Source: Motilibacteraceae bacterium (GTDB taxonomy: Bacteria; Actinomycetota; Actinomycetes; Motilibacterales; Motilibacteraceae). Taken from it: a stretch of DNA of 64,000 nt. The stretch lies in NCBI GenBank assembly GCA_051954955.1, contig JBQCHF010000072.1:13319-77318 (forward strand). The letters are read 5' to 3'. The notes beneath the pieces were generated by a model, which saw only the letters and a program-made list of their open reading frames with translations, did no database searches and was not told the origin of the DNA. Made by a program: the position numbers and the translations under genes. Positions 11,178-28,160 of the stretch are shown here, piece by piece (position 1 is the first letter of the stretch; every line of letters starts with the position of its first letter).

Positions 11178-11477
11178 TCAGCCCTCCCAGCGGTGGTGCA
11201 ACGGCACCACGGTCGCGGCACTGTCCGGGGGTGGCGCTGCCGCGAGGTGCGGCGGCGGGGTCTCACCCGCCAGCTCCCGCTCGAGCAGGTAAGAGCGAGC
11301 CACGACCGAGGCGCGGAAGTCGCGCACCCGCTCCATGATCTCCTCGACCGGCTCCTGCACGACGTACTTGGTGCCGTCGACGAGCGTGACCACGGTGTCG
11401 GGGGTGCTCTCAGCGCGCTCCACCAGGTCCGGGTTCACGGCGAAAGCCGCCCCGTTCAGGCGCGTCAGAAGAATCAC
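11178..11477 (-). CDS. flbD: Flagellar protein FlbD
   Basis: GTG 11477 gives VILLTRLNGAAFAVNPDLVERAESTPDTVVTLVDGTKYVVQEPVEEIMERVRDF, a close match to the FlbD family pattern (MI.LTRLNG..F.LN.DLIE.IE.TPDTVITL..G.KY.V.ES.EEV). Position upstream of motA, as in spirochaetes and Firmicutes. The upstream part of track ORF 11178..11696 is an artefact of the palindrome. Confidence 0.8.
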   Translation of the reverse strand: MILLTRLNGAAFAVNPDLVERAESTPDTVVTLVDGTKYVVQEPVEEIMERVRDFRASVVARSYLLERELAGETPPPHLAAAPPPDSAATVVPLHHRWEG

Positions 11478-11640
11478 GTCAATCCGTCCCTGGATCGATT
11501 CGTCGAGGCCGATCCGTCGGCCCTGTACACCGACGATCGGTAGGAGGAGGCCCTGACTGAGCAACTGGGGCCGGTCCCGGCCCCTCGTCACCCGTTCGGG
11601 TGTGCAGGCCGCGTCGCCGCGACGTCGATGCGGCGGAATT

Positions 11641-11691
11641 GGGTGAGGGGCACCCCGTGCCAAACCTATTGGCACAGGGTGCCCCTCACCC
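11641..11691 (-). terminator. Long stem-loop (23 positions, 5-nt loop) 45 nt downstream of the flgE stop; attenuator, terminator or mRNA stabiliser
   Basis: Plus-strand sequence: GGGTGAGGGGCACCCCGTGCCAA-accta-TTGGCACAGGGTGCCCCTCACCC. The single non-Watson-Crick position is C.A on the plus strand. It becomes a G.U wobble in the minus-sense (operon-sense) RNA. No U-tract follows. Confidence 0.6.
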
Positions 11692-11733
11692 AACACGGAC
11701 GATCTTCGTCCAGCCTCAAGCCGCGGTCAGTGC

Positions 11734-12936: not shown

Positions 12937-13009
12937 GGAGTTCTCCTGGAGGAAGAGGCCCGCGGAAGGCGGGTAGGACGGTCGGGGACGGTGGGCCGGA
13001 GGCCCTCTG

Positions 13010-13483
13010 TCAGCTGCTTCGGACCTCCGTGACCGAGCCGACAGTCACGTCGTCGCCGGTGGCACCCGCGGGGGCGCCCACCGGCAGGACGTGGAGGGAA
13101 GCGCCCGCGGTGCCCAAACGCACCGAGGCGACGGTTCCGGTCTTCGTCGAGCCGTCCGTGGCCGTGTAGTCGACCGTCTTGCCGATCAGCGAGTTGGTGC
13201 CGAGCAGGTTCTGCCCCGCCACCATCTCGGTCATCGCCTTGGCGATGTCGTCGAGCTTCTCGACGCTGTTGAGTTGCGCCGTCTGCGCGATGAACTCCGA
13301 GCCCTGCACGGGGTTCATCGGGTCCTGGTACTTCATCTGCGCCACCAGGAGCTTGAGGAACACGTCCTTGCCCATGGCGCTGTTGTCCGCCGACTTCGCC
13401 GACGACGCGGACGCCTGCTGCCCGGAGAGCGCGGAGGCGACCGTGCTCACCGGAGCGGTGGGGATCGGCGTCGGGCTGGTCAT
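13010..13483 (-). CDS. flgD: Hook assembly/capping protein FlgD
   Basis: Sequence: MGKDVFLKLLVAQMKYQDPMNPVQGSEFIAQTAQLNSVEKL...LIGKTVDY. Confidence 0.9.
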   Translation of the reverse strand: MTSPTPIPTAPVSTVASALSGQQASASSAKSADNSAMGKDVFLKLLVAQMKYQDPMNPVQGSEFIAQTAQLNSVEKLDDIAKAMTEMVAGQNLLGTNSLIGKTVDYTATDGSTKTGTVASVRLGTAGASLHVLPVGAPAGATGDDVTVGSVTEVRSS

Positions 13484-13541
13484 GCGCTGGCCTCCTGGCG
13501 TGAAGCGGGGTGATCGGGACGACGGATGGAATAAGTCGTCA

Positions 13542-15056: not shown

Positions 15057-16144
15057 GCGGGGCTCCTTCCAGCGAGGGAGAGGACCTTGCTGACGTAGGC
15101 CTGGGTCTCGGGGTAGGGCGGAATGCCGCCAGCCTGCTTCACCGCGCCGGAGCCGGCGTTGTAGGCGGCCAGCGCGAGGTCGGTGCGGCCGCCGAACTCC
15201 TTCTGGAGCGAGGCGAGCAGGCGGGCCGCGCCGGCGATGGCTTGGTCCGGCTGCATCGGATCGACGCCAAGGGTGCGGGCGGTGGCCGGCATGAGCTGCA
15301 TGAGTCCCTGCGCCCCGGCCGGGCTGACCGCGTCGGCACGGAACCCGGACTCGGTCTGGGCCACGGCCGTCAGCAGCTGCAGCGGGACGCCGGTGGCGGC
15401 GGAGGCGGCGCGGAACGAAGCGGCGTACGGCGCCGCGTCGGCCGGGAGCCCGGCTGCCGCGGAGGAGGCGCTCGCCCAGGCGGGCATCGAGGCGGCCTGC
15501 TGGACGACGGTGCCGCCGCTGCTGGCCACACCGTCGGGGGTGTCCGGGGCGACCCGCCGGATGGCCAGCACGCCCGAGGGAACCGTGACGACGTCGACGT
15601 TCTTGCCCGGACGGGGCGCCTGCACCATGCGGTTGTCGCCGAGGTAGATGCCGACGTGGTCGATGCCGGGCTGCTTGGTGCCGTTGTCGAAGAACAGCAG
15701 GTCGCCGGGCTGGGCGGCGGCCAGGGACGGCACGGCGACGCCGGCGCGGGCCTGGTCCGCGGCCACCCGGGGCAGCGGCACGCCGAGCTGGCGGTAGACG
15801 ACCTGCACCAGGCCGGAGCAGTCCAGCCCGGTGCGCGGGTCGGTGCCGCCCCAGACGTAGGGGACGCCGACGTAGCTGGTCGCCAGGTCCGCGGCCCGGC
15901 GGCCGACGCTCGCACCGCTGGTGGTCAGAGCCGGAGTCGGGGAGGTGCCGCCCAGCGCGAGCGCGTCGGTGGCGGCGGACAGGTCGGTGCCGAAGTCGCC
16001 CGTCGTCGCCAGCGCGGCCGAGCTCTCCGACACGCTGTCGGAGGAAGGCGGGACGACGCTGGGGCCGGCCAGGAACCCGAAGCGGGACTGGATGGCGGCG
16101 ATGCGGCTCTGCACGTCGGCGACGGCCGGGAAGGACATGCTCAT
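15053..16144 (-). CDS. Bifunctional peptidoglycan hydrolase: NlpC/P60 endopeptidase domain plus SLT lytic transglycosylase domain
   Basis: Start ATG 16144 forms an ATGA overlap with the fliJ stop. P60 motifs: YVWGGTDPRTGLDCSGLVQVVY...DLLFF...IDHVGIYLGDNRMVQAP. SLT motifs: AVAQTESGFRADAVSPAGAQGLMQLMPATA...LALAAYNAGSGAV. Confidence 0.85.
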   Translation of the reverse strand: MSMSFPAVADVQSRIAAIQSRFGFLAGPSVVPPSSDSVSESSAALATTGDFGTDLSAATDALALGGTSPTPALTTSGASVGRRAADLATSYVGVPYVWGGTDPRTGLDCSGLVQVVYRQLGVPLPRVAADQARAGVAVPSLAAAQPGDLLFFDNGTKQPGIDHVGIYLGDNRMVQAPRPGKNVDVVTVPSGVLAIRRVAPDTPDGVASSGGTVVQQAASMPAWASASSAAAGLPADAAPYAASFRAASAATGVPLQLLTAVAQTESGFRADAVSPAGAQGLMQLMPATARTLGVDPMQPDQAIAGAARLLASLQKEFGGRTDLALAAYNAGSGAVKQAGGIPPYPETQAYVSKVLSLAGRSPA

Positions 16145-16584
16145 CGCGCACCCTCCGGGCCACTCGAGCCATTCGGACGGCGGTAGCTGGCCCGCTCGTC
16201 GAGCTCGCGCTGCTCCGCGCGCTCGTCCTCGAGGCGCACAGCCTCGGCGTGCCGTTCGGCCAGCCGCTCCACACCGCGAGCCGCCGCGCGGGCCGCCGAC
16301 CACTGGTCCAGTGCACCGGCCACGCCGGCCTCGCGCTCGCGCCGCGCGGTACGGGCCGCGGCGGCGTCGTGGGCCAGGGACAGGCGGGCGCTCGTGGTGG
16401 CGACCCAGTCCACGTAGGTGGCGCTCTCCGGGGCCACCCCGCCATCCAGGCGAACCTCCAGCTCCTGCTCGCGCTGCACGGCGAGCGCCAGCTCGGCGCG
16501 GGCGGCGGCCACCGCGGCGGCGGCCTTGTCCTCCTGCACCTTGCGCACGCGCAGCACGGCGGCCAGCGGGAACCTGCGGTTCAT
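16141..16584 (-). CDS. fliJ: Flagellar export chaperone/stalk protein FliJ
   Basis: Start ATG 16584 forms an ATGA overlap with the fliI stop. Sequence MNRRFPLAAVLRVRKVQEDKAAAAVAAARAEL... is coiled-coil, and position and size are typical of FliJ. Confidence 0.7.
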   Translation of the reverse strand: MNRRFPLAAVLRVRKVQEDKAAAAVAAARAELALAVQREQELEVRLDGGVAPESATYVDWVATTSARLSLAHDAAAARTARREREAGVAGALDQWSAARAAARGVERLAERHAEAVRLEDERAEQRELDERASYRRPNGSSGPEGAR

Positions 16585-17918
16585 GCGGCGACCCCGAGCG
16601 GTCCGCGGCCGAGCAGCTCGCCGAGGTGGTTCCACGCCGACGCCGCGTCGGAGCGCTCGTCGAGGTCCTGGCGGAGGAAGCCGTCGATCTGCTGGCGGAG
16701 CATGACCGCGCGGTCGACGTCGGGGTTGGTGCCGGCGGCGTAGGCGCCGATCTCGAGCAGCTCGCGGGCGTCGCGGTGCGCGGCCATCAGCCGGCGCAGC
16801 TCGACGGCGGCCTCGCGCTGCGGGCGCGAGGTGACCGCGTTGGCGACCCGGGAGACCGACTCGAGCACGTCGATGCTCGGGAAGTGCCCGGCGGTGGCCA
16901 GCCGGCGGGTGAGCACGACGTGGCCGTCGAGGATCGAGCGGGCGGCGTCGCCGATGGGCTCGTTGTGGTCGTCGCCCTCCACCAGCACCGTGTAGATGCC
17001 GGTGATGCTGCCGCGCTCCCCCGGCCCGGCCCGCTCGAGCAGCTTGGGCAGCAGGGCGAACGTGCTCGGCGGGTAGCCGCGGGTGGCCGGCGGCTCGCCG
17101 GCCGAGAGGCCCACCTCGCGCTGAGCCATGGCCATGCGGGTGAGCGAATCCATCATCAGGACGACGTCGCGGCCCTCGTCACGGAACCACTCGGCGATGC
17201 GGGTGGCCACGAACGCGGCGCGCAGGCGCACCAGCGGCGGCTCGTCCGAGGTGGCCACGACGACGACGGAGCGGGCCAGGCCCTCCGGGCCGAGGTCGTT
17301 CTCGAGGAACTCACGCACCTCGCGGCCACGCTCGCCGACCAGGGCGATGACGGACACCTCGGCGTTCGTGCCCCGCGCGATCATCGAGAGCAGGCTCGAC
17401 TTCCCGACGCCGGAGCCGGCGAACACGCCGATGCGCTGGCCGCGGCCGACCGGGATCAGCGAGTCCATCGCGCGCACCCCGACCGACAGCTGACGCTCAA
17501 CCCGACCGCGCAGCAGCGGGTTGGGCGCGCTGGCGTCGACCGGCACGGTGGGTAGCCCGTCCAGCGCCGGGCCGCCGTCGATCGGGCGGCCCAGGCCGTC
17601 GAGCACACGACCCCGAAGTGCCTCTCCTACGGAGACTCGGAGAGCAGAACCGGTTGCGAGCACCGGAAGACCAGCGCGGATGCCGCTGACCGGACCGATC
17701 GGCTGGCAGGCCAGGCCCTCCGGCGTCACCGCGACCACCTCGGCGGCGATGTCACCATCCGGGGCCTTGACCTGGACCAGGTGCCCGACGGCCGCGTGCA
17801 GCCCGCGCACGGTCACGGTGAGGCCGACGACGCCGGTCACCTGGCCGGTGACGAGCGGGGCGGCGGCGCTCAGGGCGCGGTCGAGCCCGGGGAGGTAGCG
17901 GGAGGTGGCGGTGCTCAC
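16581..17918 (-). CDS. fliI: Flagellum-specific ATPase FliI
   Basis: Walker A is GQRIGVFAGSGVGKSSLL. Walker B region is DVVLMMDSLTRMAMAQREV. Overall F1/T3SS ATPase family. Confidence 0.97.
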   Translation of the reverse strand: MSTATSRYLPGLDRALSAAAPLVTGQVTGVVGLTVTVRGLHAAVGHLVQVKAPDGDIAAEVVAVTPEGLACQPIGPVSGIRAGLPVLATGSALRVSVGEALRGRVLDGLGRPIDGGPALDGLPTVPVDASAPNPLLRGRVERQLSVGVRAMDSLIPVGRGQRIGVFAGSGVGKSSLLSMIARGTNAEVSVIALVGERGREVREFLENDLGPEGLARSVVVVATSDEPPLVRLRAAFVATRIAEWFRDEGRDVVLMMDSLTRMAMAQREVGLSAGEPPATRGYPPSTFALLPKLLERAGPGERGSITGIYTVLVEGDDHNEPIGDAARSILDGHVVLTRRLATAGHFPSIDVLESVSRVANAVTSRPQREAAVELRRLMAAHRDARELLEIGAYAAGTNPDVDRAVMLRQQIDGFLRQDLDERSDAASAWNHLGELLGRGPLGVAA

Positions 17919-18652
17919 GGCAGCAGCACCTCCCGGGCCCGCTGCAGCGCGGTCTCCAGCCGAGCGTCCACCCGGGTGGCGTCGCAGTCCGCGACGGCGC
18001 TGCCGGGGCCGACCGACGGGTCGGCGGCGAGCACCACCTCCCGACCGTCGACCAGCAGCTCCGACGACCGGTCGGAGGTCCCGACGAGGGCGGCGTGGTC
18101 GGCCGGGTTGAGCCGCACCAGCACGCGTGACCCCTCGGGGGCCAGGTCGAGCGCGCGCCGCAGCGCGGCCCGGCCGGGCTCGGGGTCCAGGGCCACCTCA
18201 CGGCCGAGCACCGCGGCGGCCAGCGCCAGCGCAGCCTCCACGACGGCGTCGCGCACCTCCTCGGCCTGCGGGAGGGCGCGGCGCTCCAGCTCACCGGCCG
18301 CGCGTACCACCGCGTCCATCGCGCGGTGGAAGGACAGGCTGCGCGATGCCTCGGTGGCCTCCTGGGCGGCGGCCAGCGCGGCGGCGCGCTGCGCGGCGTC
18401 GGCGAGGGCGGCCGCCTGCCCGGCCGCCCAGCCCTCGGCGTAGCCCTGGGCGCGGGCAGCGGTGCGGACCTCCTCGGCCGCCTCCTCGAAGGCGGCCTCC
18501 AGACGCGGGTCGGCCAGCCGCGGGTCCAGCCGCACCGAGCCGTCGGCCGCGCGGAGGAACCGGCTGTGTCGCAGGTCGGCGTCGAGCCGGGCCGGGGCGA
18601 AGGCGGCCGCTGCCGCCCCGCGCAGCACCGGCGCCTCAGGCGACGAACTCAT
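17915..18652 (-). CDS. fliH: Flagellar assembly protein FliH
   Basis: I start at ATG 18652 (MSSSPEAP...), which overlaps the fliG 3' end by 17 nt. The Ala/Glu-rich coiled coil includes GYAEGWAAGQAAA, and the C-terminus reads ...RVLVRLNPADHAAL...VDARLETALQRAREVL. There is a 4-nt overlap with the fliI start. Confidence 0.75.
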   Translation of the reverse strand: MSSSPEAPVLRGAAAAAFAPARLDADLRHSRFLRAADGSVRLDPRLADPRLEAAFEEAAEEVRTAARAQGYAEGWAAGQAAALADAAQRAAALAAAQEATEASRSLSFHRAMDAVVRAAGELERRALPQAEEVRDAVVEAALALAAAVLGREVALDPEPGRAALRRALDLAPEGSRVLVRLNPADHAALVGTSDRSSELLVDGREVVLAADPSVGPGSAVADCDATRVDARLETALQRAREVLLP

Positions 18653-19649
18653 CGTCCGACCCGCGACGCACGACCAGCTGACCGGCCTCCTCCAGGCCAC
18701 GGATGGCCTGGACGATCTTCATCTGCGACTCCTCGACGGTGCGCAGGCGCACCGGGCCGAGCATCTCGATCTCGTCGGCGAGGTTCTCCGCCGCGCGCTC
18801 GGACAGGTTGCGCATGACCTTCTCGCGCACGTCTTCGCGCACGCCCTTGAGCGCGGTGGCCAGGTCCGCGGTCTCGACCTGGCGCAGGACCAGCTGCACG
18901 CCGCGGTCGTCGAGGCTCACGATGTCCTCGAACATGAACATGCGGCTGCGGACCTCTTCGGCCAGCGCCGGGTCGCGGCCCTCGAGTCCCTCGAGGATGA
19001 GCCGCTCGGTGGCGCGGTCGCTGCGGTTGATGATCTCGACCAGCGGGGTGAGGCCGCCGATCTCGGACAGGTCCGCCGGCTGCAGCACCGAGGAGAGCTT
19101 GCGCTCCAGCGTCCGCTCCACCTGTTTGATGATGTCCGGCGAGGTGCGGTCCATCACCGCGATGCGGTGCGCGACGTCGGCCTGCAGCTCCGGGGCGAGC
19201 CCGGACAGGATGGTGGAGGCCTGGTCCGCGGTCATGTGCGCCAGCACCAGCGCGATGGTCTGCGGGTGCTCGTCCTGCAGGAAGGACAGCACCTGGCGCG
19301 GATCGGCGCGGTGCAGGAACTGGAACGGCATCTCCATCACCGCAGCGGAGAGCCGGCCGAGGATCTCCCCGGCGCGGCCCTCACCGAGGCTGGCCTCGAG
19401 GACCTCCTGGGCGAAACCGAAGCCACCCTGCCCGACGTAGCGCCGGGCGGTGAGGAGCTGGTGGAACTCGGTGACGACCTCGTCGGCCTCGGTGGGGTCG
19501 AGCTGCTGCAGCCGCACGATCTCGGCCATCAGCTCCTCGACCTCGGACTCGCGCATCTCCGCGAGCACCTTGGTGGTGGCCTCGCGGCCCATCTGCACGA
19601 GCAGGATCGCGGCCTTGCGCACGCCGCTCCCGGTCATGGTGCCGGCCAT
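18636..19649 (-). CDS. fliG: Flagellar motor switch protein FliG
   Basis: Sequence: GVRKAAILLVQMGREATTKVLAEMRESEVEELMAEI...MPFQFL...VETADLATALKGVREDVREKVMRNLSERAAENLADEIEMLGPVRL. Confidence 0.95.
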   Translation of the reverse strand: MAGTMTGSGVRKAAILLVQMGREATTKVLAEMRESEVEELMAEIVRLQQLDPTEADEVVTEFHQLLTARRYVGQGGFGFAQEVLEASLGEGRAGEILGRLSAAVMEMPFQFLHRADPRQVLSFLQDEHPQTIALVLAHMTADQASTILSGLAPELQADVAHRIAVMDRTSPDIIKQVERTLERKLSSVLQPADLSEIGGLTPLVEIINRSDRATERLILEGLEGRDPALAEEVRSRMFMFEDIVSLDDRGVQLVLRQVETADLATALKGVREDVREKVMRNLSERAAENLADEIEMLGPVRLRTVEESQMKIVQAIRGLEEAGQLVVRRGSDDEFVA

Positions 19650-19652
19650 GGC

Positions 19653-21275
19653 TCAGCCCCTCCGGTCCGCGAGCCAGCCGCGCAGGAGCTGCGCGACCTC
19701 CTCCGGCTGCTGCTGCACCAGCTGGCCGATCTCGTCACGGGCCAAGGCGGCCAGCTGCGCAGCCGGGTCCGGCGCCGGGGCCGGGTCGAGCGCCGCGATG
19801 GCGACGTTGCCGGTGCCGGTCAGCTCGCCGGCCGGCTGGACGTTGGCCAGCTCCAGGCTGCGCTGGAGGGCCTCGATCTGCAGCCGCTCCTCCGGGCTCA
19901 GGGCGGGCGCCTTGCGGCGCTTGCGGCCGGCGAGCAGGGCGTAGAGGACCACCAGCACGACCAGGCCGACCAGGCCGCCGGTCTTGATCAGCGACATCCG
20001 CGACGCCGTCTGCTCCGCCTTCTTGGCCTCGGCCAGCTGGGTCTGGGCGTCCTTCTCCGCGCTCTGGTCGAACGGCATCCGGCTGACCTGGATGGTGTCG
20101 CCACGGCTGGCGGTGATGCCGGCCGCGCTGGCCACCAGGGCCTGCACCTGGGCCGGGTCGATGGTGCCGGCGGTACGGGTGTCCAGCAGCACCGCCACGT
20201 TGAGCTTGCGCACCGTGCCGGGGGCGGACTTGCGCTGCTCCACCACCTTGCCGACGGCGTTGTTCACCGTGGCCGAGTCCTTCTGGTAGGTGTTCGCGCC
20301 CGGGGTGGCGCTGCCGGCCGGCACGGAGATGTTGTCCGGGCCGAGCACGCCGCCGACAGCCGTTCCGCCGGCACCGGACCACTTCTCGGTCGTCGTGCTG
20401 CTGGCCACCGGCGGCACGGTCTTGTCGTAGACGTACTTCTCGGTGGTGGTGTCGGTGCTGTCGTAGTCGAGGTCGGCGGTGAGGCGGACCACGCTGTGGC
20501 CAGGGCCGACGACGCGGTCGAGCATGTCCTGCAGGGACTGGCTCATCCGGTCCTCGTAGGACCGGGTCTGGTCGCCGCGGGTGTCCGCGCCGGCGCCACC
20601 GGCGGTGCCCTGGGCGGAGAGCACGCGGCCCTTGCCGTCGGCCACGGTCACCATGTCCGGCGTCAGGCCCGGCACGCTGGAGGCGACCAGGTTGGTCACC
20701 GCCTGCACCTGCTGGCTGGTCAGGTCCTGCCCGGCCTTGGTCCGCACCAGCACCGACGCCGTGGGCTTGTCGCTCTCCTTGGTGAAGACGTCCTTCTGCG
20801 GGATGGCGAGGTTCACCACCGCGGCGTCGACGCCCTGGATCGACTGGATCGTCTTGGCCAGCTCGCCTTCCAGGGCCCGCTGGTAGGCCACCTGCTGCTG
20901 GAACTGCGAGGACGTCATGCCCTGCTTGTCCAGCAGCGCCCAGCTGGAGGAGTCGCTGGCCGGCAGACCCTGCCCGCTCATCTGCAGCCGGACGCCGTCC
21001 ACCTGCCCCTGCGGCACCAGGATGGTCGAGCCGCCGTTGGCCAGCTTGTAGGGCGTGCCGGCGCTGTTGAGCTTGTCCACGATCGCCGAGGCGTCCGAGG
21101 CCGCGAGGTTGGAGAACAGCGGCGCGTAGGTGGGCGTGGAGGCCCAGCGGTTGAACAACAGCGCCCCGAGCGCTAGGCCGATCACCGCGAGCACGGTGAC
21201 GACCTTCTGGCCGAGGGTGAAGTCTCCGAAGGTGCGGCCGGCCCGCCGGGCCGCGCCGAGCAGGTTCTGGCCCAT
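19653..21275 (-). CDS. fliF: Flagellar MS-ring protein FliF
   Basis: N-terminal TM, then a YscJ/FliF domain (YAPLFSNLAASDASAIVDKLNSAGTPYKLANGGSTILVPQGQV), a second TM near the C-terminus, and a FliG-binding tail. Confidence 0.95.
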   Translation of the reverse strand: MGQNLLGAARRAGRTFGDFTLGQKVVTVLAVIGLALGALLFNRWASTPTYAPLFSNLAASDASAIVDKLNSAGTPYKLANGGSTILVPQGQVDGVRLQMSGQGLPASDSSSWALLDKQGMTSSQFQQQVAYQRALEGELAKTIQSIQGVDAAVVNLAIPQKDVFTKESDKPTASVLVRTKAGQDLTSQQVQAVTNLVASSVPGLTPDMVTVADGKGRVLSAQGTAGGAGADTRGDQTRSYEDRMSQSLQDMLDRVVGPGHSVVRLTADLDYDSTDTTTEKYVYDKTVPPVASSTTTEKWSGAGGTAVGGVLGPDNISVPAGSATPGANTYQKDSATVNNAVGKVVEQRKSAPGTVRKLNVAVLLDTRTAGTIDPAQVQALVASAAGITASRGDTIQVSRMPFDQSAEKDAQTQLAEAKKAEQTASRMSLIKTGGLVGLVVLVVLYALLAGRKRRKAPALSPEERLQIEALQRSLELANVQPAGELTGTGNVAIAALDPAPAPDPAAQLAALARDEIGQLVQQQPEEVAQLLRGWLADRRG

Positions 21276-21592
21276 CAGATCTGCATCCGCATGATCTCGT
21301 TGAACGCGTCGACGGCCTTGTTGCGCAGGGTCACCGCGAGGTCGGTGGCCAGCTGCGCCTGGGTCGCCGCGATCGTGTAGTCGTGGACGTCCTTGAGGTC
21401 GCCGGTGGCGGCCTGCACCGCGAGGGTGTCCGCGTTGGCCTGGGTGGCCTGCAGGCTGTCGACACCCTTGGCCAGAATGCTGGCGAAGTCGGCACCCCCG
21501 GCGCCGTTCACGTTCTGGGCCTGCTGCACCGGCGCGGCCGCGGCCAGCGGCGCCACCGGGGCGATCGGCAGGCTGATCGGCGAGATGCTCAC
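21275..21592 (-). CDS. fliE: Flagellar hook-basal body protein FliE
   Basis: 105 aa. Sequence: [70 protein letters not shown]. Confidence 0.85.
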
Positions 21593-21999
21593 GCGCCCCT
21601 CCCGAGCTGGATCGCGGACGTGTAGGCCTCCTGGGCCGCCTTGACGACCTGCAGGTTCGCCTCGTAGCCGCGCTGGGCCATGATCAGCTGGGTCATCTGG
21701 GACCCGAGGTCGATGTCCGGCAACCTCACGTTGCCATCCTTGTCGGCCAGCGGGTTCTGCGGGTCGTAGACCACCCGGCCCTGGGCCGAGCCGAGCTTCA
21801 CCCCGGCGACGTCGACACCGCCGTCGCCGCTGCCGTACTCGCGGGCCTGGGCGACGACGTAGCGGGCCTGGAAGGCGTTCTCATTGGTCGGCTTGACGGT
21901 GTTGATGTTGGCGATGTTGTCCGAGACCGCGTCGAGCCACTTGCGGTAGACGGTCACGCCGCTCGCGCTGATCCCCAGCGCCCCGAAGAGGCCGCTCAC
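21589..21999 (-). CDS. flgC: Flagellar proximal rod protein FlgC
   Basis: Sequence: [24 protein letters not shown]...[25 protein letters not shown]. Confidence 0.95.
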
Positions 22000-22355
22000 G
22001 AGGTCCTCATCGCCGAACGGAGCACCGAGAACTGGTTGTCCATCGCCCGCAGCGCCAGCTGATAGCGCATCCCGGTGTCGATGTTGGACAGCGTCTCCTC
22101 GTCGAGGTTGACGTTGTTACCGTCCTCGCGGGTGGGCTCCAGCGAGCGGGCCACCGACGGCGCCACCGCAGGGCTCTGGCCGCTCGCGACGGCGTCCTTG
22201 AGGGCGGACTCGAACTGGACCTTGCCGGCCAGGAACCCGGGAGTCTGGATGTTGGCGATGTTGTCGGCAATGGTGCGCTGCCGCATGGCCAGACCGTTGA
22301 GCGCGCTGTGCAGCGCGACGGTCGTCACGTCATCGAACACGAAGGAACTCGCCAC
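21996..22355 (-). CDS. flgB: Flagellar proximal rod protein FlgB
   Basis: Sequence: LNGLAMRQRTIADNIANIQTPGF...NNVNLDEETLSNIDTGMRYQLALRAMDNQF. First gene of the long co-directional operon. Confidence 0.9.
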   Translation of the reverse strand: MASSFVFDDVTTVALHSALNGLAMRQRTIADNIANIQTPGFLAGKVQFESALKDAVASGQSPAVAPSVARSLEPTREDGNNVNLDEETLSNIDTGMRYQLALRAMDNQFSVLRSAMRTS

Positions 22356-22427
22356 CAGTTCGTCGGAGGTGCCGAAAAGGGGTCCGCCGAATCCGTGGCG
22401 GGTGCGAGCGATCCGTGCTCAGTGTGT

Positions 22428-22454
22428 TGATCGGCCGGGCCGGTCAGGATCTGA
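22428..22454 (-). promoter_or_regulatory. Candidate sigma-28 (FliA)-type promoter of the flgB operon
   Basis: Minus-strand sequence is TCAG-atcctgaccggcccg-GCCGATCA, 73 nt upstream of the flgB start. The same 4-mer, the same 15-nt spacer and the same GCCGA core occur upstream of fliC and flgN. The enteric/Bacillus consensus is TAAA-N15-GCCGATAA. Confidence 0.5.
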
Positions 22455-22483
22455 AGCAGACCAACCGGTGTACCGGGATGGAT

Positions 22484-23596
22484 TCAGCCGGCGAGCAGAG
22501 CGAGGTCCTCGCTCACGTCGATGCCCCGGCGCGCCGCCTCGTCCAGAGCCACCCTGGCCGCGCAGGCATCGCCGAGGACTGCTCGGGCCAGCGCCAAAGA
22601 GCGCCAGGCCGCTCCACTTCCCCAGCGTCTGCCGGAAGCATCGATCAACTCATCCACGGAGACGCAGCCCTCGAGAATCGTCGCTCCCTCGACCGCCGCT
22701 CCCGCGAGCACCATCGCCTGACCGCGCAGGTGGTCGCAGTAGGCGGCCTGCACCCCGTGCTCGCGCAGGTGCTCGGTGAGGGCCAGGACGAGGTCGTGCT
22801 CACCCGCCCCTATCAGCAGCCGAGCCATGAAGTCCGCGGCGGACAGTCCGGGGAGCCCCTCGGGGTCGAGCGCCTGCGCCTGTCCGAGGACCTCCAGAGC
22901 CTGCTGCCGGCGGCCGGCGGCGATGAGCGAACGCCCCAGATCGAGCAACAGCGCGGCTCGTCGACGCGGAGGTGCCTGCTCGGGAAGGTTCTCCAGCTCG
23001 ACCGCCAAGAGCTCGGCATTCCGCAGACCCTTCGCCTCGTCGTCAGCGGGGTTCGCGTAGCCATGGTGAACGAGCATCCCTACCTCGGGCGGCAGCAAGG
23101 GCCCAGAGGCCAGTTCGCCATGCACGTCGACGAGCTGTTCATGAGCGGCGCCCGCGTAACGCATCTCGCCTGGGCGGTAGAGCCGTGAGGACTCGATGGT
23201 CCAGCCCTCTCGCCCAGATCCCTCTGCTGCGACATTGCGAACCAGGAGTCGCGGGGCGACATTGGCGGGCTGCCCGCTCAGTGCGGTCCGCAGGGCATTG
23301 CCGTCGGATACCAGTTCCTCGTCGGCATCCACCACGAGGACCCATTCGACAGGATGCTTCTGCGCAGCCAGCGCAGCCGCGGCGTTTCGTGCCGCCGAGA
23401 AGTCGTCCGTCCAGGGGACGTCCACGACGGTCGCCCCGGCCCGCGAGGCCAGCTCACAGGAGCTGTCCGAGGAGCCCGTGTCGGCCACGACCACGGCATC
23501 ACAGGCCTTGAGCAGGGGGGGCAGGGACCGTGGAAGGGTCGCCTCCTCGTCCTTGACGATGAGCACGGCCACCAGGGACGCCATGGAAGTGCTCAC
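22484..23596 (-). CDS. Family-2 (GT-A) glycosyltransferase with a C-terminal helical/TPR-like domain; candidate flagellin glycosyltransferase
   Basis: GT2 signature: VAVLIVKDEEATLPRSLPPLLKACDAVVVADTGSSDSSCELASRAGATVVDVPWTDDFSAARNAAAALA...WVLVVDADEEL (DxD). The C-terminal half is Ala/Leu-rich helical repeats. GTG 23596 forms a GTGA overlap with the upstream stop; an alternative ATG is at 23584. Many non-GC third positions compared with neighbouring genes. Confidence 0.75.
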   Translation of the reverse strand: MSTSMASLVAVLIVKDEEATLPRSLPPLLKACDAVVVADTGSSDSSCELASRAGATVVDVPWTDDFSAARNAAAALAAQKHPVEWVLVVDADEELVSDGNALRTALSGQPANVAPRLLVRNVAAEGSGREGWTIESSRLYRPGEMRYAGAAHEQLVDVHGELASGPLLPPEVGMLVHHGYANPADDEAKGLRNAELLAVELENLPEQAPPRRRAALLLDLGRSLIAAGRRQQALEVLGQAQALDPEGLPGLSAADFMARLLIGAGEHDLVLALTEHLREHGVQAAYCDHLRGQAMVLAGAAVEGATILEGCVSVDELIDASGRRWGSGAAWRSLALARAVLGDACAARVALDEAARRGIDVSEDLALLAG

Positions 23597-23916
23597 AAGC
23601 TGGCGTCGACGTAGACGGGGATCTCTCGGCGTGCACCCGAGCCGAGCTGCCGGACGTAGGCCGCGTGGCGACGGTTGCCCAGCATCGTGTGGGCGATCTC
23701 CGCAGACACGGCGAGCTGGCGGTCGAGGATGTCGCGAGCGCGCTCGAGGAGGTGCGACGGCAGCGGACCGGGCAGCTGCGGAGGGATCCACTGCGGCTGC
23801 TGCAGCGGAGGTTCCAGCGGGTCGTGGCCCCGCAGCAGGGCCTCGGCGCGGTCGACCTCCAGCTCGAGCTCGTCGAGCGCGGCGACCCAGGCCGCGTGGA
23901 AGTCGGCCGAGCTCAC
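23593..23916 (-). CDS. Hypothetical 107-aa helical protein of the flagellar late operon
   Basis: GTG 23916 lies 2 nt after the fliS stop, and the gene's own stop overlaps the GT start. Sequence: VSSADFHAAWVAALDELELEVDRAEALL...LLERARDILDRQLAVSAEIAHTML... I recognise no family. The upstream part of the track ORF (to 24015) overlaps fliS. Confidence 0.55.
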   Translation of the reverse strand: MSSADFHAAWVAALDELELEVDRAEALLRGHDPLEPPLQQPQWIPPQLPGPLPSHLLERARDILDRQLAVSAEIAHTMLGNRRHAAYVRQLGSGARREIPVYVDASL

Positions 23917-23917
23917 G

Positions 23918-24316
23918 TCAGGCTCCCGACCCCTCGGCGGCGACCTGCCGAGCTGCCTCATGCCAAGCGTCACGCAGAGGCTCGACAAGGGCACGGCAGG
24001 CCGACGTCGCGGCAAGGTCGTTCTGCACGTTCGCGCGGATCAGCTCGGTGTGGAGGAAAGTGTAGATCGATGCGAGCGCGGGCCCGCCCTCCCAAAGCTC
24101 GGGTCGGAGCCCGTCCTGCAGCGCGATGACGATGTCCTGCGCGTGGACCAGCTGATCGTTGGCCTTCTCCCGATCCCCTGCCTGCTGTGCCAGCTCGGCG
24201 CGCTCGAGGTCGAGCACGAGGCGGTCGTAGAGCATGGTCAGCAGCTTGGCAGGGGAAGCCGTTGTCACGCCGGAGCTGACGTATCGAGCTCGTAGGGCTG
24301 TCCCGTTCACGGTCAC
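23918..24316 (-). CDS. fliS: Flagellin-specific export chaperone FliS
   Basis: Sequence: ASPAKLLTMLYDRLVLDLERAE...KANDQLVHAQDIVIALQDGL...GGPALASIYTFLHTELIRANVQND. Confidence 0.9.
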   Translation of the reverse strand: MTVNGTALRARYVSSGVTTASPAKLLTMLYDRLVLDLERAELAQQAGDREKANDQLVHAQDIVIALQDGLRPELWEGGPALASIYTFLHTELIRANVQNDLAATSACRALVEPLRDAWHEAARQVAAEGSGA

Positions 24317-24334
24317 GCCTTTCCTCTCACCTTG

Positions 24335-25654
24335 TCAGCCCGTAGGTAGGGACGCGATCTGGCCGGCCAGCCAGTTGCCCTGGTCCTTGAGCTTGCCGAG
24401 GGCGACCTCGAGATTGCTGAACTGCAGCTGGAGCGCCTGCTGACGCTGGGTCAGCCGCACGTCCCAGTTCGAGATCTGGTCGTTGAGGTCGCGGATATCG
24501 GAATTTCGGCCGTTGATGGCCGTCGTGATGGAACCGGTCACCGAGTCAGTGGCCTTCGTCGCGATGCTCGTGAAGGACGTTGCGAGCGACTGCACGGTCG
24601 ACTGAGCCTTCGCCGGATCGGTGGCGTAGAGGTCGAGGAACTTCTGCCGGTCGAAGGTGACGTTCCCGTCCCGGTCGACTGAGAGACCGGCCAGGGAGGA
24701 GCCACCGGCGCTCGACGTCCCGGGGGCGCCCGCGATGGACTGTGCGATGAGCCGGACGCCGAGATCACCGTTGAGCGGCGCCCCGCTCTTGGTCGCGCTG
24801 TTCCAAGCGGTCTGGTTGGTGATCTCCTTGGTTGCCGCGTTCGCGGCGGTGACCATCGCCTGGACCTTGTCCGCGAGGGCACCTGGGTCGGTCGCGACGG
24901 TGACCGTGCTCGTCACCCCCGCCGCACCGACAGTGAAGCTCGTGCCCTGCAGGACGTCGGAGAAGGTGTTGGTGGACGAGGTCACCTGGTAGCCAACGGC
25001 TCCGGTGCCGGTCCCGCCGATGCTCAGGACGGCGTCGCTGCCGCCCACAGCGCGCTGGTAGGAGCCGAGCGCACCGAGGGAGAGGGCGGAACCGCCGGTG
25101 AAATCGCTCGCCGCCCCTGTGCTGCCCGCGGTCAACGACAGGTGGTAAAGACCGTCGCTCGTCTTGACTGCGGAGGCACGCACAGAAAGCCCGGCGTTGT
25201 TGATGGAGGAAACCACGTCGTTCAGGGAGGAACCCGTCACGGTCACGGTGCCCGGGCTCGCCCCAGCGAAGGTGATGGTGTCTCCGGCATTCCATACGGC
25301 AGCTGTCGGGTCGGCGACGCCTCCAGTGCTGATCCCGCTCTCCGCAGCGGCCACCGCATCGACGTGGAACGTGAGGGACCCCGGGGTCGCGGACGACGTC
25401 GACGCCACCGTGACGGAGCTGTCGCTGCTGGTGCCCTTGGCCGCGACGAAGCCGCCGACGGCCGTGAGGGCCTCCGCCGCAGTCTGCAGCGCCGAGAGCC
25501 GGCTGTTCACCGACTGGTAGCTCGACACCGCCTGCTGAGCCGCCGAGACCTTGGCCTTCAGCGCTGTCTGCGGGGCCGCTTCCACCTGCATGAGCTGGGA
25601 GATCAGCTGCGAGGTGTTGAGGCCGGAGACGAGCCCGTCGACGCTCGTGCTCAT
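24335..25654 (-). CDS. fliD: Flagellar filament cap protein FliD
   Basis: N-terminus VDGLVSGLNTSQLISQLMQVEAAPQTALKAKVSAAQQAVSSYQSVNSRLSAL. C-terminus ...ISNWDVRLTQRQQALQLQFSNLEVALGKLKDQGNWL. Confidence 0.9.
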   Translation of the reverse strand: MSTSVDGLVSGLNTSQLISQLMQVEAAPQTALKAKVSAAQQAVSSYQSVNSRLSALQTAAEALTAVGGFVAAKGTSSDSSVTVASTSSATPGSLTFHVDAVAAAESGISTGGVADPTAAVWNAGDTITFAGASPGTVTVTGSSLNDVVSSINNAGLSVRASAVKTSDGLYHLSLTAGSTGAASDFTGGSALSLGALGSYQRAVGGSDAVLSIGGTGTGAVGYQVTSSTNTFSDVLQGTSFTVGAAGVTSTVTVATDPGALADKVQAMVTAANAATKEITNQTAWNSATKSGAPLNGDLGVRLIAQSIAGAPGTSSAGGSSLAGLSVDRDGNVTFDRQKFLDLYATDPAKAQSTVQSLATSFTSIATKATDSVTGSITTAINGRNSDIRDLNDQISNWDVRLTQRQQALQLQFSNLEVALGKLKDQGNWLAGQIASLPTG

Positions 25655-26007
25655 GAACGCTGTTCTCCTCGCTCGAGCCCAAGGCGCGTGCGCGCCAGGC
25701 TCGCCTCGATCGCTCGAACCACCTGCTCTGGCGGAAGCTGGAGCAGCGTCTGCCCGGTCTCGGGATCTAGCACCGAGGTGACGGGGAGACCGTCCCGCTG
25801 CTCGATCCGCACCGCCATGCTCGGCCGTACGGCAGCCTCCAGCCGCACGCGAATCGCGGCTCGCTGGTGCTGCTCGACCGGCACGTCTCTCCCGTCGGCG
25901 GCCGGCCGCTCGACCTGAGGAACGGGGGGGCGCGGGAACGTGGGTCGTGCGGCTGCGCGCGCATTCTCGATCGGTTGTGACACGGATGGAACCTGCACGT
26001 GCGACAC
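25651..26007 (-). CDS. flaG: FlaG-family flagellar protein
   Basis: The C-terminal half, VRIEQRDGLPVTSVLDPETGQTLLQLPPEQVVRAIE, matches the FlaG pattern (...D.etgEvirQiPpEe.l). GTG 25998 is the more likely start, because GAAGGAGG sits about 9 nt upstream. Confidence 0.7.
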   Translation of the reverse strand: MSHVQVPSVSQPIENARAAARPTFPRPPVPQVERPAADGRDVPVEQHQRAAIRVRLEAAVRPSMAVRIEQRDGLPVTSVLDPETGQTLLQLPPEQVVRAIEASLARTRLGLERGEQRS

Positions 26008-26023
26008 CTCCTTCGACGCGTGC

Positions 26024-26053
26024 GGGGCGGCCGGCTGGTGCCGACCGCCCCGA
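26024..26053 (-). terminator. Hairpin 20 nt downstream of the fliC stop (flagellin terminator/attenuator)
   Basis: Plus-strand sequence: CGGGGCGGCCGG-ctggtg-CCGACCGCCCCG. This is a 12-position stem. Its one C.A position becomes a G.U wobble in minus-sense RNA. No U-tract follows, and the flaG SD follows immediately. Confidence 0.55.
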
Positions 26054-26073
26054 CGTGCGCCCTACGGCGTGGC

Positions 26074-26958
26074 CTAGCGGAGCAGGGACAGCACGCCCTG
26101 CGGCGCCTGGTTCGCCTGCGCGAGCATGGCCGTGCCGGCCTGCGACAGGATCTGCGACCTGGTGAAGCTCACCATCTCCGACGCCATGTCGGTGTCACGG
26201 ATCCGGCTCTCCGACGCCGACAGGTTCTCGACGGCGACGTTGAGGTTGTTGATCGTGTGCTCGAACCGGTTCTGCGAGGCACCGAGCTTCGCACGGACGG
26301 TGGAGACGTCCTTGATGGCCTCGTCGATCTGGGTGATCGCAGACTGAGCACCCGTCGTAGAGGTCAGGGCCAGGCCCGACGTCTTCAGGCCCGCCGAGTC
26401 GAAGCCCGAGATCGCAGTGGCACCAGTGGCGGCGGTGAAGCCAGTGATCATGCCGCTGGCACCACTCGTGACGTCGATCGTGATCTGGTCGTTCGTGGTG
26501 TTGTTGGCGCCGACCTGGAAGGTGCCCTTGTAGTTGCCGTCCAGCAGCTTGGTGCCGCCGAACGCCGTGGTCTTGGCGATGCGGTCGAGCTCCTTGTTCA
26601 GCTCCTGGAACTCGGTGTCCGCGGCGGCCTGGGCGGTGGAGTCCTGCGAGCCGGAGTTCGCCGCCTGCACGGACAGGTCGCGCATGCGCTGGAGGATGCT
26701 GGTGGTCTCGTTGAGCGCACCTTCAGCGGTCTGAGCGACCGAGATGCCGTCCTGGGCGTTGCGGACGGCGACCTTGAGGCCACCGATCTGCGAGCGCAGA
26801 CCCTCGGACACCGAGAGGCCGGCCGCGTCGTCGGCGGCACGGTTGATGCGGAAGCCGCTGGACAGCTTCTCCAGGGACTTCTCCATCTGGCCCTGCGTCA
26901 CCGACAGGTTCCGGTAGGCGTTGAAGGCCGCGATGTTCTGGTTGATGCGGAGACCCAT
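26074..26958 (-). CDS. fliC: Flagellin
   Basis: N-terminus [59 protein letters not shown]-terminus ...[35 protein letters not shown]. The variable domain is short and Ser/Thr/Gly-rich. 294 aa. Confidence 0.97.
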
Positions 26959-26963
26959 GATGA

Positions 26964-27007
26964 TCCTCCTTGAATCGGGTCCGTTGCTCCCGGGCCGTCC
27001 GTGGCCC
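26964..27007 (-). promoter_or_regulatory. fliC 5' leader with three GGA motifs; candidate CsrA binding sites
   Basis: Minus-sense leader: GGGCC-ACGGAC-GGCCC (5-bp stem with GGA in a hexaloop, 27007..26992). Then CGGG-AGCAACGGA-CCCG (second ACGGAC, 26984..26979). Then CAAGGAGGA, the SD at 26970..26964, 5 nt before the ATG. Confidence 0.45.
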
Positions 27008-27018
27008 GTTCGCTCTGA

Positions 27019-27045
27019 CAGTCGGCGCCTGGTCCAGGCGCCTGA
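27019..27045 (-). promoter_or_regulatory. Candidate sigma-28 (FliA)-type promoter of fliC
   Basis: Minus-strand sequence is TCAG-gcgcctggaccaggc-GCCGACTG, 61 nt upstream of the fliC ATG and 11 nt after the fliA stop. The spacer consists of a 9-bp perfect inverted repeat (27024..27042). Confidence 0.5.
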
Positions 27046-27055
27046 GGGGGAAGCT

Positions 27056-27955
27056 CTACGCCGAGCGGGTGATCGTCGCGAGGGCGACGCTGCCCATGTC
27101 GACCGGGCGGGCCGACAGGCGGGTGCGGAAGTCGCTGTGCGAGGCGACGGCGGCGAAGTAGGCCTCGCGCCGGCGGGTGGCGCAGCCGTCGGGGCGACCG
27201 ACCGGCTGGACCAGCTCGGGCTCCAGCGCGGAGTTCATGCCGTCGCGCAGCAGGCTCAGGGCCTCGGCCCGCATCTGGGAGACGCGGGACTCGGTGACGC
27301 CGAGCTCGACCGCGATCTCCGCCATCGGCCGCTCCTCGAAGAAGTAGCGGACGACGACGGTGCGCAGGCGCTCAGGCAGCACCGCGATGGCGTCGTGCAG
27401 GTAGCCGATCTTCTCGTTGAGCAGCAGGCGCTCGTCCGGGCTCTCGTCGCCGACCGGAGCGACCTCGTCCAGCGCGGAGGGGTCGGCGAAGCCCTGCAGG
27501 CTCAGCACGACGGCGCGCTGCACGTCCTCCTCCACCGACTCCACCTCGCCGACGGCGACGCCCAGGTGGGCGGCGATCTCCTCGGCGGTGGGGGTGCGGC
27601 CCAGGACACCGGCCAGCGCCTCGATGGCGGCGTCGCGGCGGCGGGCCTTGGAGCGGACCGAGCGACTGGCCCAGTCGTGGCTGCGCAGCTCGTCGATGAG
27701 GGCGCCGCGGATGCGGGTGCTGGCGAACCGACCGAACGGCACCCCGCGCTCGGGGTCGAAGCCGCGGGCGGCCTGGGCCAGGGCGGCGAGGCCGGCCGAC
27801 ATCAGCTCGTCGCGGCTCACGTGGGCCGGGACGCGGCCGATCATCTCGGAGACGAGGTAGCCGACCAGCGGCAGGTTCGTCGTCACGAGCTCCTCCTCGA
27901 CGCCCCGGTCGACGGGGCGGCGGGGGGCCGGGATGGGCATCGGCGTCACGGTCAT
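27056..27955 (-). CDS. fliA: Flagellar alternative sigma factor, FliA/WhiG (sigma-28) family, with a C-terminal extension of about 55 aa
   Basis: Region 2: [12 protein letters not shown]...[43 protein letters not shown]. Region 3: EEIAAHLGV. Region 4: [49 protein letters not shown] further 55 aa of unrecognised sequence follow. Confidence 0.9.
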
Positions 27956-28133
27956 GGGGATCCCCTCGGCCGATTGGTGGCCTCGAGTTGAGCCCCCGGA
28001 GTGAAAACGGCTAGGGGTGGCTAGTCCCCTCGGTCCCGATGGCCCGGGCCCTCTGGGTCCAAAGACCTAGACGACCGGTGCACGCGGACAGGTCGGTGCC
28101 CGATTGCGACATGAATCGGTGGCACGAGACGGC

Positions 28134-28160
28134 TCAGAAGCCAGCCGCTCCAGCCGACAG
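28134..28160 (+). promoter_or_regulatory. Candidate sigma-28 (FliA)-type promoter of the flgN-flgK-flgL-fliW operon
   Basis: Plus-strand sequence is TCAG-aagccagccgctcca-GCCGACAG, 75 nt upstream of the flgN ATG. Confidence 0.5.

Follow-up and report, generated by a model that had tools for sequence, protein, structure and literature searches.

Eight copies of a bipartite box, in which a -35 element (C/T)TCA and a -10 core of the GCCGA type are separated by 16 nt, were found ahead of early flagellar, late flagellar and chemotaxis genes in a stretch of 64,000 nucleotides (the window; G+C content 72%) from a member of the Motilibacteraceae, a family of Actinomycetes. These boxes are very probably promoters for the sigma-28 factor of the FliA/WhiG1 type that is encoded at 27056-27955 within the same flagellar cluster. 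This reading is based on the pattern itself, its enrichment, its specificity in spacing and strand, its conservation ahead of orthologous genes, the presence of the sigma gene, and the placement of the boxes at operon breaks. An initial annotation had listed three TCAG-N15-GCCGA boxes upstream of flgB, fliC and flgN as candidate FliA promoters. These boxes, with scores from the position weight matrix (PWM) described below, and the corresponding genes are as follows:

22431..22455 (-), flgB box: TTCA-N16-GCCGA(TCA); 20.5 bits; -10 'A' 76 nt before the GTG at 22355; letters at 22454..22428 (-), TCAG-atcctgaccggcccg-GCCGATCA
27022..27046 (-), fliC box: CTCA-N16-GCCGA(CTG); 12.8 bits; -10 'A' 64 nt before the ATG at 26958; letters at 27045..27019 (-), TCAG-gcgcctggaccaggc-GCCGACTG
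28133..28157 (+), flgN box: CTCA-N16-GCCGA(CAG); 13.3 bits; -10 'A' 78 nt before the ATG at 28235; letters at 28134..28160 (+), TCAG-aagccagccgctcca-GCCGACAG
21996-22355 (-), flgB (Pfam)
26074-26958 (-), fliC (Pfam)
28235-28717 (+), flgN (Pfam), followed by flgK and flgL

The coordinates, strands and spacers of the three boxes were borne out (TCAG-N15-GCCGA at 22431-22454(-), 27022-27045(-) and 28134-28157(+)), and the leader lengths of 73, 61 and 75 nt given for flgB, fliC and flgN agree within one nucleotide with the 72, 60 and 74 nt that separate the end of the 8-nt box from the start codon. By its position, the flgN box serves the unit flgN-flgK-flgL-fliW-csrA, and the fliC box begins 10 nt past the fliA stop codon. 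The boxes had been described as identical, which holds for TCAG-N15-GCCGA but not beyond it, as flgB has TTCA and not CTCA. Their likeness to sigma-28 promoters stands for the geometry and the -10 core; the -35 element is CTCA, of which TCAG is a reading shifted rightwards by one base. All three boxes are real but do not make up the full set, since two more exact matches to TCAG-N15-GCCGA were found at 3165-3188(-) and 25895-25918(-). Both are probably functional, as the flhA promoter and as a site before fliD, respectively.

Definition and conservation of the box

The motif was defined on loci of related Actinomycetota that were gathered around FliA homologues, with one genome per species, and in which the orthologues of flgB, fliC and flgN were placed by tblastn. 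On first inspection, cCTCA(G/A)-N15-GCCGA(T) was seen ahead of most of these orthologues. The input of an unbiased dyad search, in which every combination of 4-mer, spacer and 5-mer was counted, consisted of 64 orthologous upstream regions, from which the near-identical locus L001 was excluded, and 6000 control segments. CTCA-N16-GCCGA emerged as the top de novo dyad, present in 39 of the 64 regions and in 92 of the 6000 control segments, while TCAG-N15-GCCGA and TCAA-N15-GCCGA were found in 28/64 and 11/64 regions, respectively. Judged from these regions, the true motif is (C/T)TCA-N16-GCCGA, one base to the left of TCAG, and the base following TCA is preferentially G, with A in about a quarter of the sites. 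The spacing is exclusive, N16 accounting for the 39 regions and any other spacing between N12 and N20 for 0-3, as is the strand, with no antisense match in the 64 regions. Both controls share the phylogeny of the test regions, and apart from the box the intergenic regions cannot be aligned at 55-75% protein identity.

A PWM of 36 nt was then refined exclusively on sites from other genomes, the window being left out. Its consensus is AAnncCTCA(G/a)g-N14-GCCGA(T)g(a/g)g; each position of GCCGA is kept at 88-98%, and the relatives favour the downstream extension GCCGA-T-G-(A/G)-G. An orthologous box was found ahead of flgB in 10-11 of 14 loci and ahead of fliC and flgN in 18 of 20 loci each, and this conservation spans Motilibacteraceae, Nocardioides, Marmoricola and Dactylosporangium. 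The operon-internal genes flgC, fliE, fliF, flgK and flgL have no box ahead of them in the 12-21 loci checked.

The near-identical relative, L001, is a metagenome-assembled genome of the Motilibacteraceae with a FliA that is 99% identical to that of the window (FlgB 95%, FliC 84%, FlgN 100%). In its flgB gap, the sequence 5' of the -35 element is scrambled relative to the window, while that starting at the -35 element is near-identical, and the changes in its fliC box are confined to the spacer and to -10+1, with both cores kept. The spacer of the fliC box in the window (27026-27042(-)) forms an 8-bp palindrome, GGCGCCTG-gac-CAGGCGCC (-16 kcal/mol), just past the fliA stop codon; this palindrome is not conserved in L001. 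The low identity of the flagellin, compared to 99% for FliA and 100% for FlgN, points to fast flagellin divergence or replacement among close relatives.

Within the window, TCAG-N15-GCCGA was seen five times, as compared to 1.4 expected (~3.5-fold), a count that was reached in 1 of 100 shuffles; this excess is suggestive only. CTCA-N16-GCCGA was seen eight times (1.34 expected; reached in none of 100 shuffles). Three of these exact matches, at 22799(+), 27816(+) and 51610(-), are antisense or within coding sequence and were judged to be due to chance. The PWM scan returned eight hits above the threshold of 12 bits, with 0.95 expected, all of them sense-upstream of motility genes. Of all strand-positions, 3% are non-coding and lie ahead of a called gene, on its sense strand and at most 150 nt away; at least seven of these eight hits fall there (binomial P of 1.5e-10 for seven or more out of eight).

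When the spacer was left free in a scan with the two half-sites, N16 gave eight hits (1.05 expected), and N15, N17 and N18 gave zero, two and zero hits (1.5, 1.5 and 0.95 expected). One N17 match, at 12464-12498(-) with CTCG at -35, lies inside flgE and was judged to be due to chance. Among the eight N16 boxes, seven have CTCA at -35, the flgB box having TTCA, and six have GCCGA at -10, the exceptions being flbD (ACCGA) and cheA (GTCGA); CGA is kept in all. The bases after the core are TCA, CTG, CAG, AGA, TCC, TCG, CGG and TGT.

Predicted transcription units of the flagellar and chemotaxis locus

The following list gives the five further boxes, together with the features that delimit the units behind them (ORF, open reading frame):

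3165..3189 (-), flhA box: CTCA-N16-GCCGA(AGA); 21.0 bits at 3159-3194
8925..8949 (-), fliM box: CTCA-N16-GCCGA(TCC); 21.9 bits at 8919-8954, the best in the window
11537..11561 (-), box of flbD-motA-motB-fliL: CTCA-N16-ACCGA(TCG); 60 nt before the flbD GTG at 11477
25895..25919 (-), box inside a flaG-like ORF: CTCA-N16-GCCGA(CGG); 14.1 bits at 25889-25924
43226..43250 (-), cheA box: CTCA-N16-GTCGA(TGT); 12.3 bits; 59 nt before the cheA GTG at 43167
3631..22355 (-), early gene run: at least three candidate units, from Pfam, the gene map and hairpins
11638..11694 (-), hairpin after the flgE stop: perfect 26-bp inverted repeat, -57.9 kcal/mol, z -9, no U-tract
3259..3598 (+), opposite-strand ORF of 113 aa between flhB and flhA: positive coding score, hydrophobic C-terminal half

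These boxes stand where operon breaks call for a promoter, namely after the hairpins that follow flgE and fliL and that precede cheA, or in the divergent flhA gap. The early structural genes had been regarded as a single 21-kb operon, a view that had to be abandoned, because the flgE hairpin, the fliL hairpin, the opposite-strand gene and the internal boxes before flbD, fliM and flhA divide it into several units, of which there are at least four. Within the early gene run, the first unit comprises flgB-flgC-fliE-fliF-fliG-fliH-fliI-fliJ-fliK-flgD-flgE, the second flbD-motA-motB-fliL and the third fliM-fliN-fliO-fliP-fliQ-fliR-flhB. The hairpin behind flgE is likely a terminator or a processing/stability site that parts flgE from flbD. 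The PWM hit that follows it (11531-11566(-), 13.8 bits) lies 54 nt before flbD, the product of which matches Pfam FlbD from residue 1. A terminator-like hairpin 3' of fliL is directly followed by the fliM box. From the -10 'A' to the in-frame GTG of fliM at 8913 it is 12 nt, so that the mRNA may be near-leaderless. The sole comparable locus from a relative, L083, has no box before fliM.

The divergent gap that separates the opposite-strand ORF at 3259-3598(+) from the flhA ATG at 3055 contains the flhA box, and flhA itself was identified by a FHIPEP match from residue 26. The ORF has no match in Pfam or NCBIfam; its location between flhB and flhA breaks their co-transcription and splits the export-gate operon. 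The conservation of internal boxes was followed in metagenome loci collected via FlhA. Since FlhA is strongly conserved, most of these 80 loci come from other phyla, and L081-L087 were the useful ones. In the flhB-flhA gap of the two closest FlhA relatives (L081 and L082), boxes were found that score 25.4 and 21.3 bits. Downstream of flhA, the segment 1-972(-) of the window encodes a FlhF-like N-terminus (TIGR03499, E 8e-8) of a gene that runs past the window edge.

The flaG-like ORF has the box at 25895..25919 in its 5' portion; from the box it is 241 nt to the fliD ATG and 11 nt to an in-frame GTG at 25884, in place of which L001 has an ATG. This box is a candidate promoter of the unit (flaG)-fliD-fliS-orf-GT, in which GT stands for a glycosyltransferase gene, and a -42 kcal/mol hairpin 3' of fliC precedes it. 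L001 differs from the window by a single substitution across this box, with heavily substituted flanks, and in L012 and L019 a box scoring 23.5 and 25.2 bits, respectively, is found ~200 nt ahead of fliD. Among the neighbouring genes, fliS and fliD were identified by Pfam, and a 118-aa ORF is without assignment. The flaG-like ORF (25651-26007(-)) owes its name to a weak Pfam FlaG match (E 0.027, residues 71-101).

A -42 kcal/mol hairpin is also present ahead of the cheA box, the PWM hit of which (43220-43255(-)) lies 53 nt before cheA. The genes cheA, cheW, cheB, cheR, cheY and cheX as well as that of a methyl-accepting chemotaxis protein (MCP) were identified by Pfam. The chemotaxis operon (34170-43167(-)) has the order cheA-cheW-MCP-cheB-cheR-cheY-cheX-cheY-orf163. 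Its sole MCP (38053-40173) has two GAF domains, and its last ORF (34170-34661) has no family match.

The sigma factor and the regulatory hierarchy

Two features of the window concern the sigma factor itself:

27056..27955 (-), fliA/whiG1-type gene of the sigma-28 family, 299 aa: Pfam sigma70 regions 2, 3 and 4
27966..27992 (-), variant box ahead of fliA: CTCA-N18-GCCGA(G); -10 'A' 11 nt before the fliA ATG at 27955

The gene had already been assigned to the FliA/WhiG type, and this assignment is supported by the three Pfam regions, by TIGR02479 FliA_WhiG as the best NCBIfam model (183.1 bits, E 6e-54, just under the cut-off of 189.6 bits), and by the closest solved structures, which are those of Streptomyces WhiG (6pfv) and FliA (9wsm, 6pmi and 1rp3). 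The gene sits between fliC and flgN inside the flagellar cluster, and such a location is a trait of WhiG1 homologues (Denis et al., mSystems 2026, PMC13595943). With the fixed-spacer PWM, a canonical N16 box facing fliA was found in none of 30 loci. From this, fliA had been considered not to be autoregulated, a conclusion that was dropped when a MAFFT alignment showed the conserved N18 variant. This variant is kept as CTCAA-N17-nCCGAG(A) in Motilibacteraceae-like loci, and the related GTCAAG...GGCGATGA occurs ahead of fliA in Acidothermaceae-like loci. The N18 box is a candidate for either a weak autoregulatory promoter with a leaderless mRNA or the site of another sigma factor. A distance of 11-12 nt between the -10 element and the start is common to fliA, fliM (GTG 8913) and the flaG-like ORF (GTG/ATG, 25884).

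In the Acidothermaceae-like locus L016 (8743-12155), fliA/whiG1 keeps a divergent gene of the FlgN family (Pfam 9.6e-13), with FlbD-domain and PilZ genes downstream. Such a divergent FlgN-family gene was also found in L009-L011, L014, L015, L032, L054, L066 and L069, often with a box ahead. The Acidothermaceae-like loci lack flgK, flgL and fliC in the vicinity and have genes for GlnR, a GNAT acetyltransferase and ABC transporters as neighbours. Might the FlgN-like protein be a partner of WhiG1 in these loci?

In the mechanism that we propose, RNA polymerase with FliA/WhiG1 would bind the -35 element (C/T)TCA and the -10 element GCCGA(T/C), 16 nt apart, and would initiate 6-10 nt past the -10 element at all eight sites. 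Eight or more promoters would thereby drive every motility unit of the window: flgB-flgE, flbD-motAB-fliL, fliM-flhB, flhA-(flhF-like), fliC, (flaG)-fliD-fliS-GT, flgN-flgKL-fliW-csrA and cheA-cheW-mcp-cheBR-cheY-cheX-cheY. As the boxes of one sigma stand on early, late and chemotaxis units, the regulon would be essentially flat, with a single sigma for rod, hook, export, motor, filament and chemotaxis genes and no FlgM transcription checkpoint. More speculatively, filament synthesis could be timed after transcription, through an action of FliW-CsrA on the GGA hairpins in the fliC leader.

Two proposals of the initial annotation are upheld here. Sigma-28 promoters ahead of both early (flgB) and late (fliC, flgN-flgK-flgL) genes are supported by footprinting, spacing and strand, and the departure from a classical three-tier hierarchy agrees with published work and with the strong boxes before flgB, fliM and flhA. 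The initial annotation had also seen no flgM, and neither FlgM nor any other anti-sigma family was found among the window ORFs scanned with Pfam and NCBIfam, a scan that left out most of the 46-64 kb portion and some recognisable flagellar genes. RsiG was not found among the unassigned ORFs of the window, and no FlhDC-like gene appeared among those scanned. Taken from a 64-kb window alone, the FlgM negative is weak; it agrees with the literature, as almost all actinobacterial flagellar clusters have no FlgM (PMC13595943) and a survey in mBio 2023 reported the loss of FlgM, FlaG and FlhF in later actinobacterial classes.

The closest match among known systems is that of Actinoplanes missouriensis. 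The consensus of its WhiG1 promoters, CTCA-N16-17-GCCGAACT (Hashiguchi 2020/Jang 2016, as quoted in PMC12871210 and PMC13083903), shares the -35 CTCA, the spacing and the GCCGA core with the boxes of the window. Its boxes likewise precede early and late flagellar units, FlgM is missing and a sigma gene is located in the flagellar cluster. All flagellar genes of this species, arranged in 11 units, are reported to be under FliA1/FliA2-type promoters, and flagellar transcript levels were unchanged in a fliQ mutant, from which the authors concluded that a hook-basal-body checkpoint on transcription is inoperative; the Actinoplanes group independently suggested post-transcriptional control. The systems differ in the bases after GCCGA, which are AACT in A. 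missouriensis but T/C followed by G/A in the window and its relatives. None of the eight window boxes has the AACT extension, so that only the GCCGA core is common. Furthermore, the window has a single sigma gene between fliC and flgN, whereas A. missouriensis has several paralogues under TcrA, a regulator that additionally activates five flagellar units, and the regulons of its four WhiG1 paralogues overlap in part. A. missouriensis belongs to a sporangium-forming genus and not to the Motilibacteraceae, and the system of the window is a prediction throughout.

The phylum-wide analysis of WhiG regulons by Denis et al. (PMC13595943) followed the same search logic (-35 xT(C/A)Ax, -10 GCCGA, at most 200 bp upstream). 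Predicted WhiG sites were found to recur several times within actinobacterial flagellar clusters, the predicted targets include chemotaxis genes and, for some taxa, whiG, and WhiG1 and WhiG2 recognise similar promoters, the WhiG2 consensus being quoted as T(A/C)AA-N16-GCCGATAA in the bioRxiv version. The multiple sites per cluster and the chemotaxis targets have their counterparts in the window, and the WhiG autoregulation in some taxa is a further likeness. In contrast, the N18 variant before fliA and leader RNA hairpins are not described there, and the word Motilibacter does not occur in the main text of the preprint.

With the sigma-28 promoters of enterobacteria and Bacillus, the boxes share the TCAx-N15-GCCGA geometry, the -10 core and the flagellin and hook-associated-protein targets. 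Whereas the canonical consensus is TAAA-N15-GCCGATAA (Helmann 1991, as cited in PMC8325347), the -35 element read in the same register is TCA(G/A) here, and the -10 elements of the window are without the TAA tail. In enterobacteria, rod, hook, export-apparatus and motor genes are class 2 genes under sigma-70 and FlhDC, whereas they carry sigma-28-type boxes here. A classical three-tier hierarchy differs from the arrangement of the window, in which no FlgM was found in the scanned ORFs and strong boxes precede flgB, fliM and flhA. Bacillus subtilis is similar in having a sigma-28-type box before an early operon (PD-3 of fla/che) and in the order flgK-flgL-fliW-csrA. However, the early operon of the window does not end with the sigma gene, and neither FlgM nor a recognisable sigma-A promoter was seen.

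Several points weigh against the proposed mechanism. The fliC, flgN, flbD and cheA boxes score modestly (12-14 bits) and are without two features favoured in the orthologues, AA on the upstream side and T following GCCGA, and the flgB (TTCA), flbD (ACCGA) and cheA (GTCGA) boxes depart from the core. The P values ignore the relatedness of the loci, which are phylogenetically non-independent. The fliM, flbD and cheA boxes are based on the window and not on conservation, and the flhA box is absent in relatives with at most 55% FlhA identity, where flhB and flhA abut. We infer from sequence the actual initiation at the boxes, its dependence on the sigma factor and the flat hierarchy. Paralogous FliA/WhiG sigmas may be encoded outside the window. 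The flgB gap has no terminator, and read-through from the fliC/fliD units could also supply flgB, ahead of which there may also be a housekeeping promoter.

The last of these points leads to the alternative that fares best, although we consider it unlikely, in which the flgB box is auxiliary, like PD-3, and a housekeeping sigma or a master regulator drives the early genes, so that the tiers persist. There are precedents for it, as the fla/che operon of B. subtilis has the sigma-D promoter PD-3 besides a sigma-A promoter and TcrA also activates five flagellar units in A. missouriensis. Moreover, fliA is without an N16 box in 30/30 loci, so that something else must start the cascade. No -10 element of the TANNNT type is visible in the 128-nt flgB gap, and a scan with an E. 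coli-type sigma-70 pattern returned nothing, a result that is uninformative since the E. coli consensus fits 72% G+C actinobacteria poorly and actinobacterial housekeeping promoters are too degenerate for such a scan. An auxiliary role is, however, at odds with the flgB box being among the top three of the window (20.5 bits) and conserved in 10-11 of 14 lineages, with the visible absence of the TANNNT-type element, with the failure to find FlgM among the scanned ORFs and with the finding that loss of the export apparatus leaves flagellar transcription unchanged in A. missouriensis.

It is quite improbable that the boxes are read by another sigma, such as a FliA/WhiG paralogue with its gene beyond the window, or a WhiG2-type factor that RsiG and c-di-GMP control. 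The view is confined to 64 kb of the genome, WhiG1 and WhiG2 promoters are similar, and the four paralogues of A. missouriensis have partly overlapping regulons. However, 30 loci have the sigma gene located between fliC and flgN, as is typical of WhiG1, the window ORFs scanned included no second sigma-28-type gene, and parsimony favours the sigma at 27056-27955. That a short degenerate pattern in a GC-rich genome produced the three initial boxes by chance has next to no likelihood, since the merely ~3.5-fold excess of TCAG-N15-GCCGA (1/100 shuffles) and the three of eight exact CTCA-N16-GCCGA matches that look random in coding sequence are outweighed by the conservation across families ahead of orthologues, the exclusive N16 spacing, the strand specificity and the placement before motility genes, which refute it.

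The consensus, the multiple sites per cluster, the loss of FlgM and the absent transcriptional checkpoint are already described for Actinomycetota. What is new is the extension of the actinobacterial WhiG1/FliA consensus to Motilibacteraceae by de novo motif discovery, independently of the published consensus, and a map of about eight predicted transcription units across the flagellar and chemotaxis locus. The analysis lends further support to an assembly of actinobacterial flagella that does not involve a FlgM-based transcriptional checkpoint. Its conceptual content being already published, its practical value lies in annotation and experiment design. The leader hairpins and the variant box of fliA are the only parts that could raise a new question, which is how assembly is sensed without FlgM.

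Leader RNAs and neighbouring genes

The features of the leaders and the genes for their putative regulators are as follows:

26992-27007 (-), hairpin in the fliC 5' leader: GGGCC-ACGGAC-GGCCC, with GGA in the loop
26964-26972 (-), fliC ribosome-binding site: AAGGAGGA
22384..22420 (-), two tandem AnGGA-loop hairpins in the flgB 5' leader: GAGC-ACGGATC-GCTC and CCGCC-ACGGATT-CGGCGG
31014-31457 (+), fliW (Pfam FliW 3.7e-32)
31568-31849 (+), csrA (Pfam CsrA 9e-25)

In 17 aligned fliC leaders, those of the window and 16 loci, the loop CACGGAnGG is invariant and 5/7 stem pairs show compensatory changes, and every leader has either AAGGAGGA or CAGGAGGGA as the ribosome-binding site. A GGA hairpin together with a GGA at the ribosome-binding site is the arrangement of the CsrA sites in the hag leader of B. 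subtilis, and the GGA elements of the fliC leader are candidate CsrA sites. The genes fliW and csrA end the flgN unit and are both found 3' of flgL in nearly all syntenic loci. An ORF at 31028-31849 had been considered as a 273-aa FliW-CsrA fusion, which was rejected because the gene map and Pfam show two genes. To judge from gene content and leaders, the window possesses the elements of a Bacillus-type FliW-CsrA-flagellin checkpoint, namely fliW, csrA and two GGA sites. With the leader hairpins and fliW/csrA in place, a post-transcriptional FliW-CsrA checkpoint is a testable idea.

Different from B. subtilis, the window also has GGA hairpins in the flgB leader, which may be CsrA sites on the early operon. 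They are located directly 3' of the predicted transcription start and are conserved in sequence in 11/11 leaders as GAGC-AnGGAnn-GCTC and GCC-GAnGGACC-GGC, the other leaders compared being those of L003, L017, L021, L038, L043, L068, L070, L073, L074 and L079. Covariation is nearly nil (1/8 pairs), so that the predicted fold is little supported. The flgN leaders have no tandem AnGGA hairpins, and an Rfam scan of 22-28 kb, more precisely of positions 21900-28600, matched no family at E values up to 1, so that the leader hairpins do not belong to any RNA family described there. Taken together, a broader scheme can be put forward tentatively, although it is more doubtful than probable: in FlgM-less Motilibacteraceae and neighbouring Actinomycetota, a single WhiG1/FliA tier would control the motility genes, fliA would be expressed from a leaderless N18 box, and FliW-CsrA would couple assembly post-transcriptionally via the flagellin and flgB leaders.

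Downstream of csrA, L001 has a 20.6-bit box (5999-6034) before a non-homologous gene, and the window has at the equivalent spot only CTCG-N16-GCCGATAGG (about 31862-31890). The cluster also contains GT2 glycosyltransferase genes at 22484-23791(-), with TPR, and at 31941-34073(+), one of them with an NTP-transferase domain, and these two genes raise the possibility of flagellin glycosylation.

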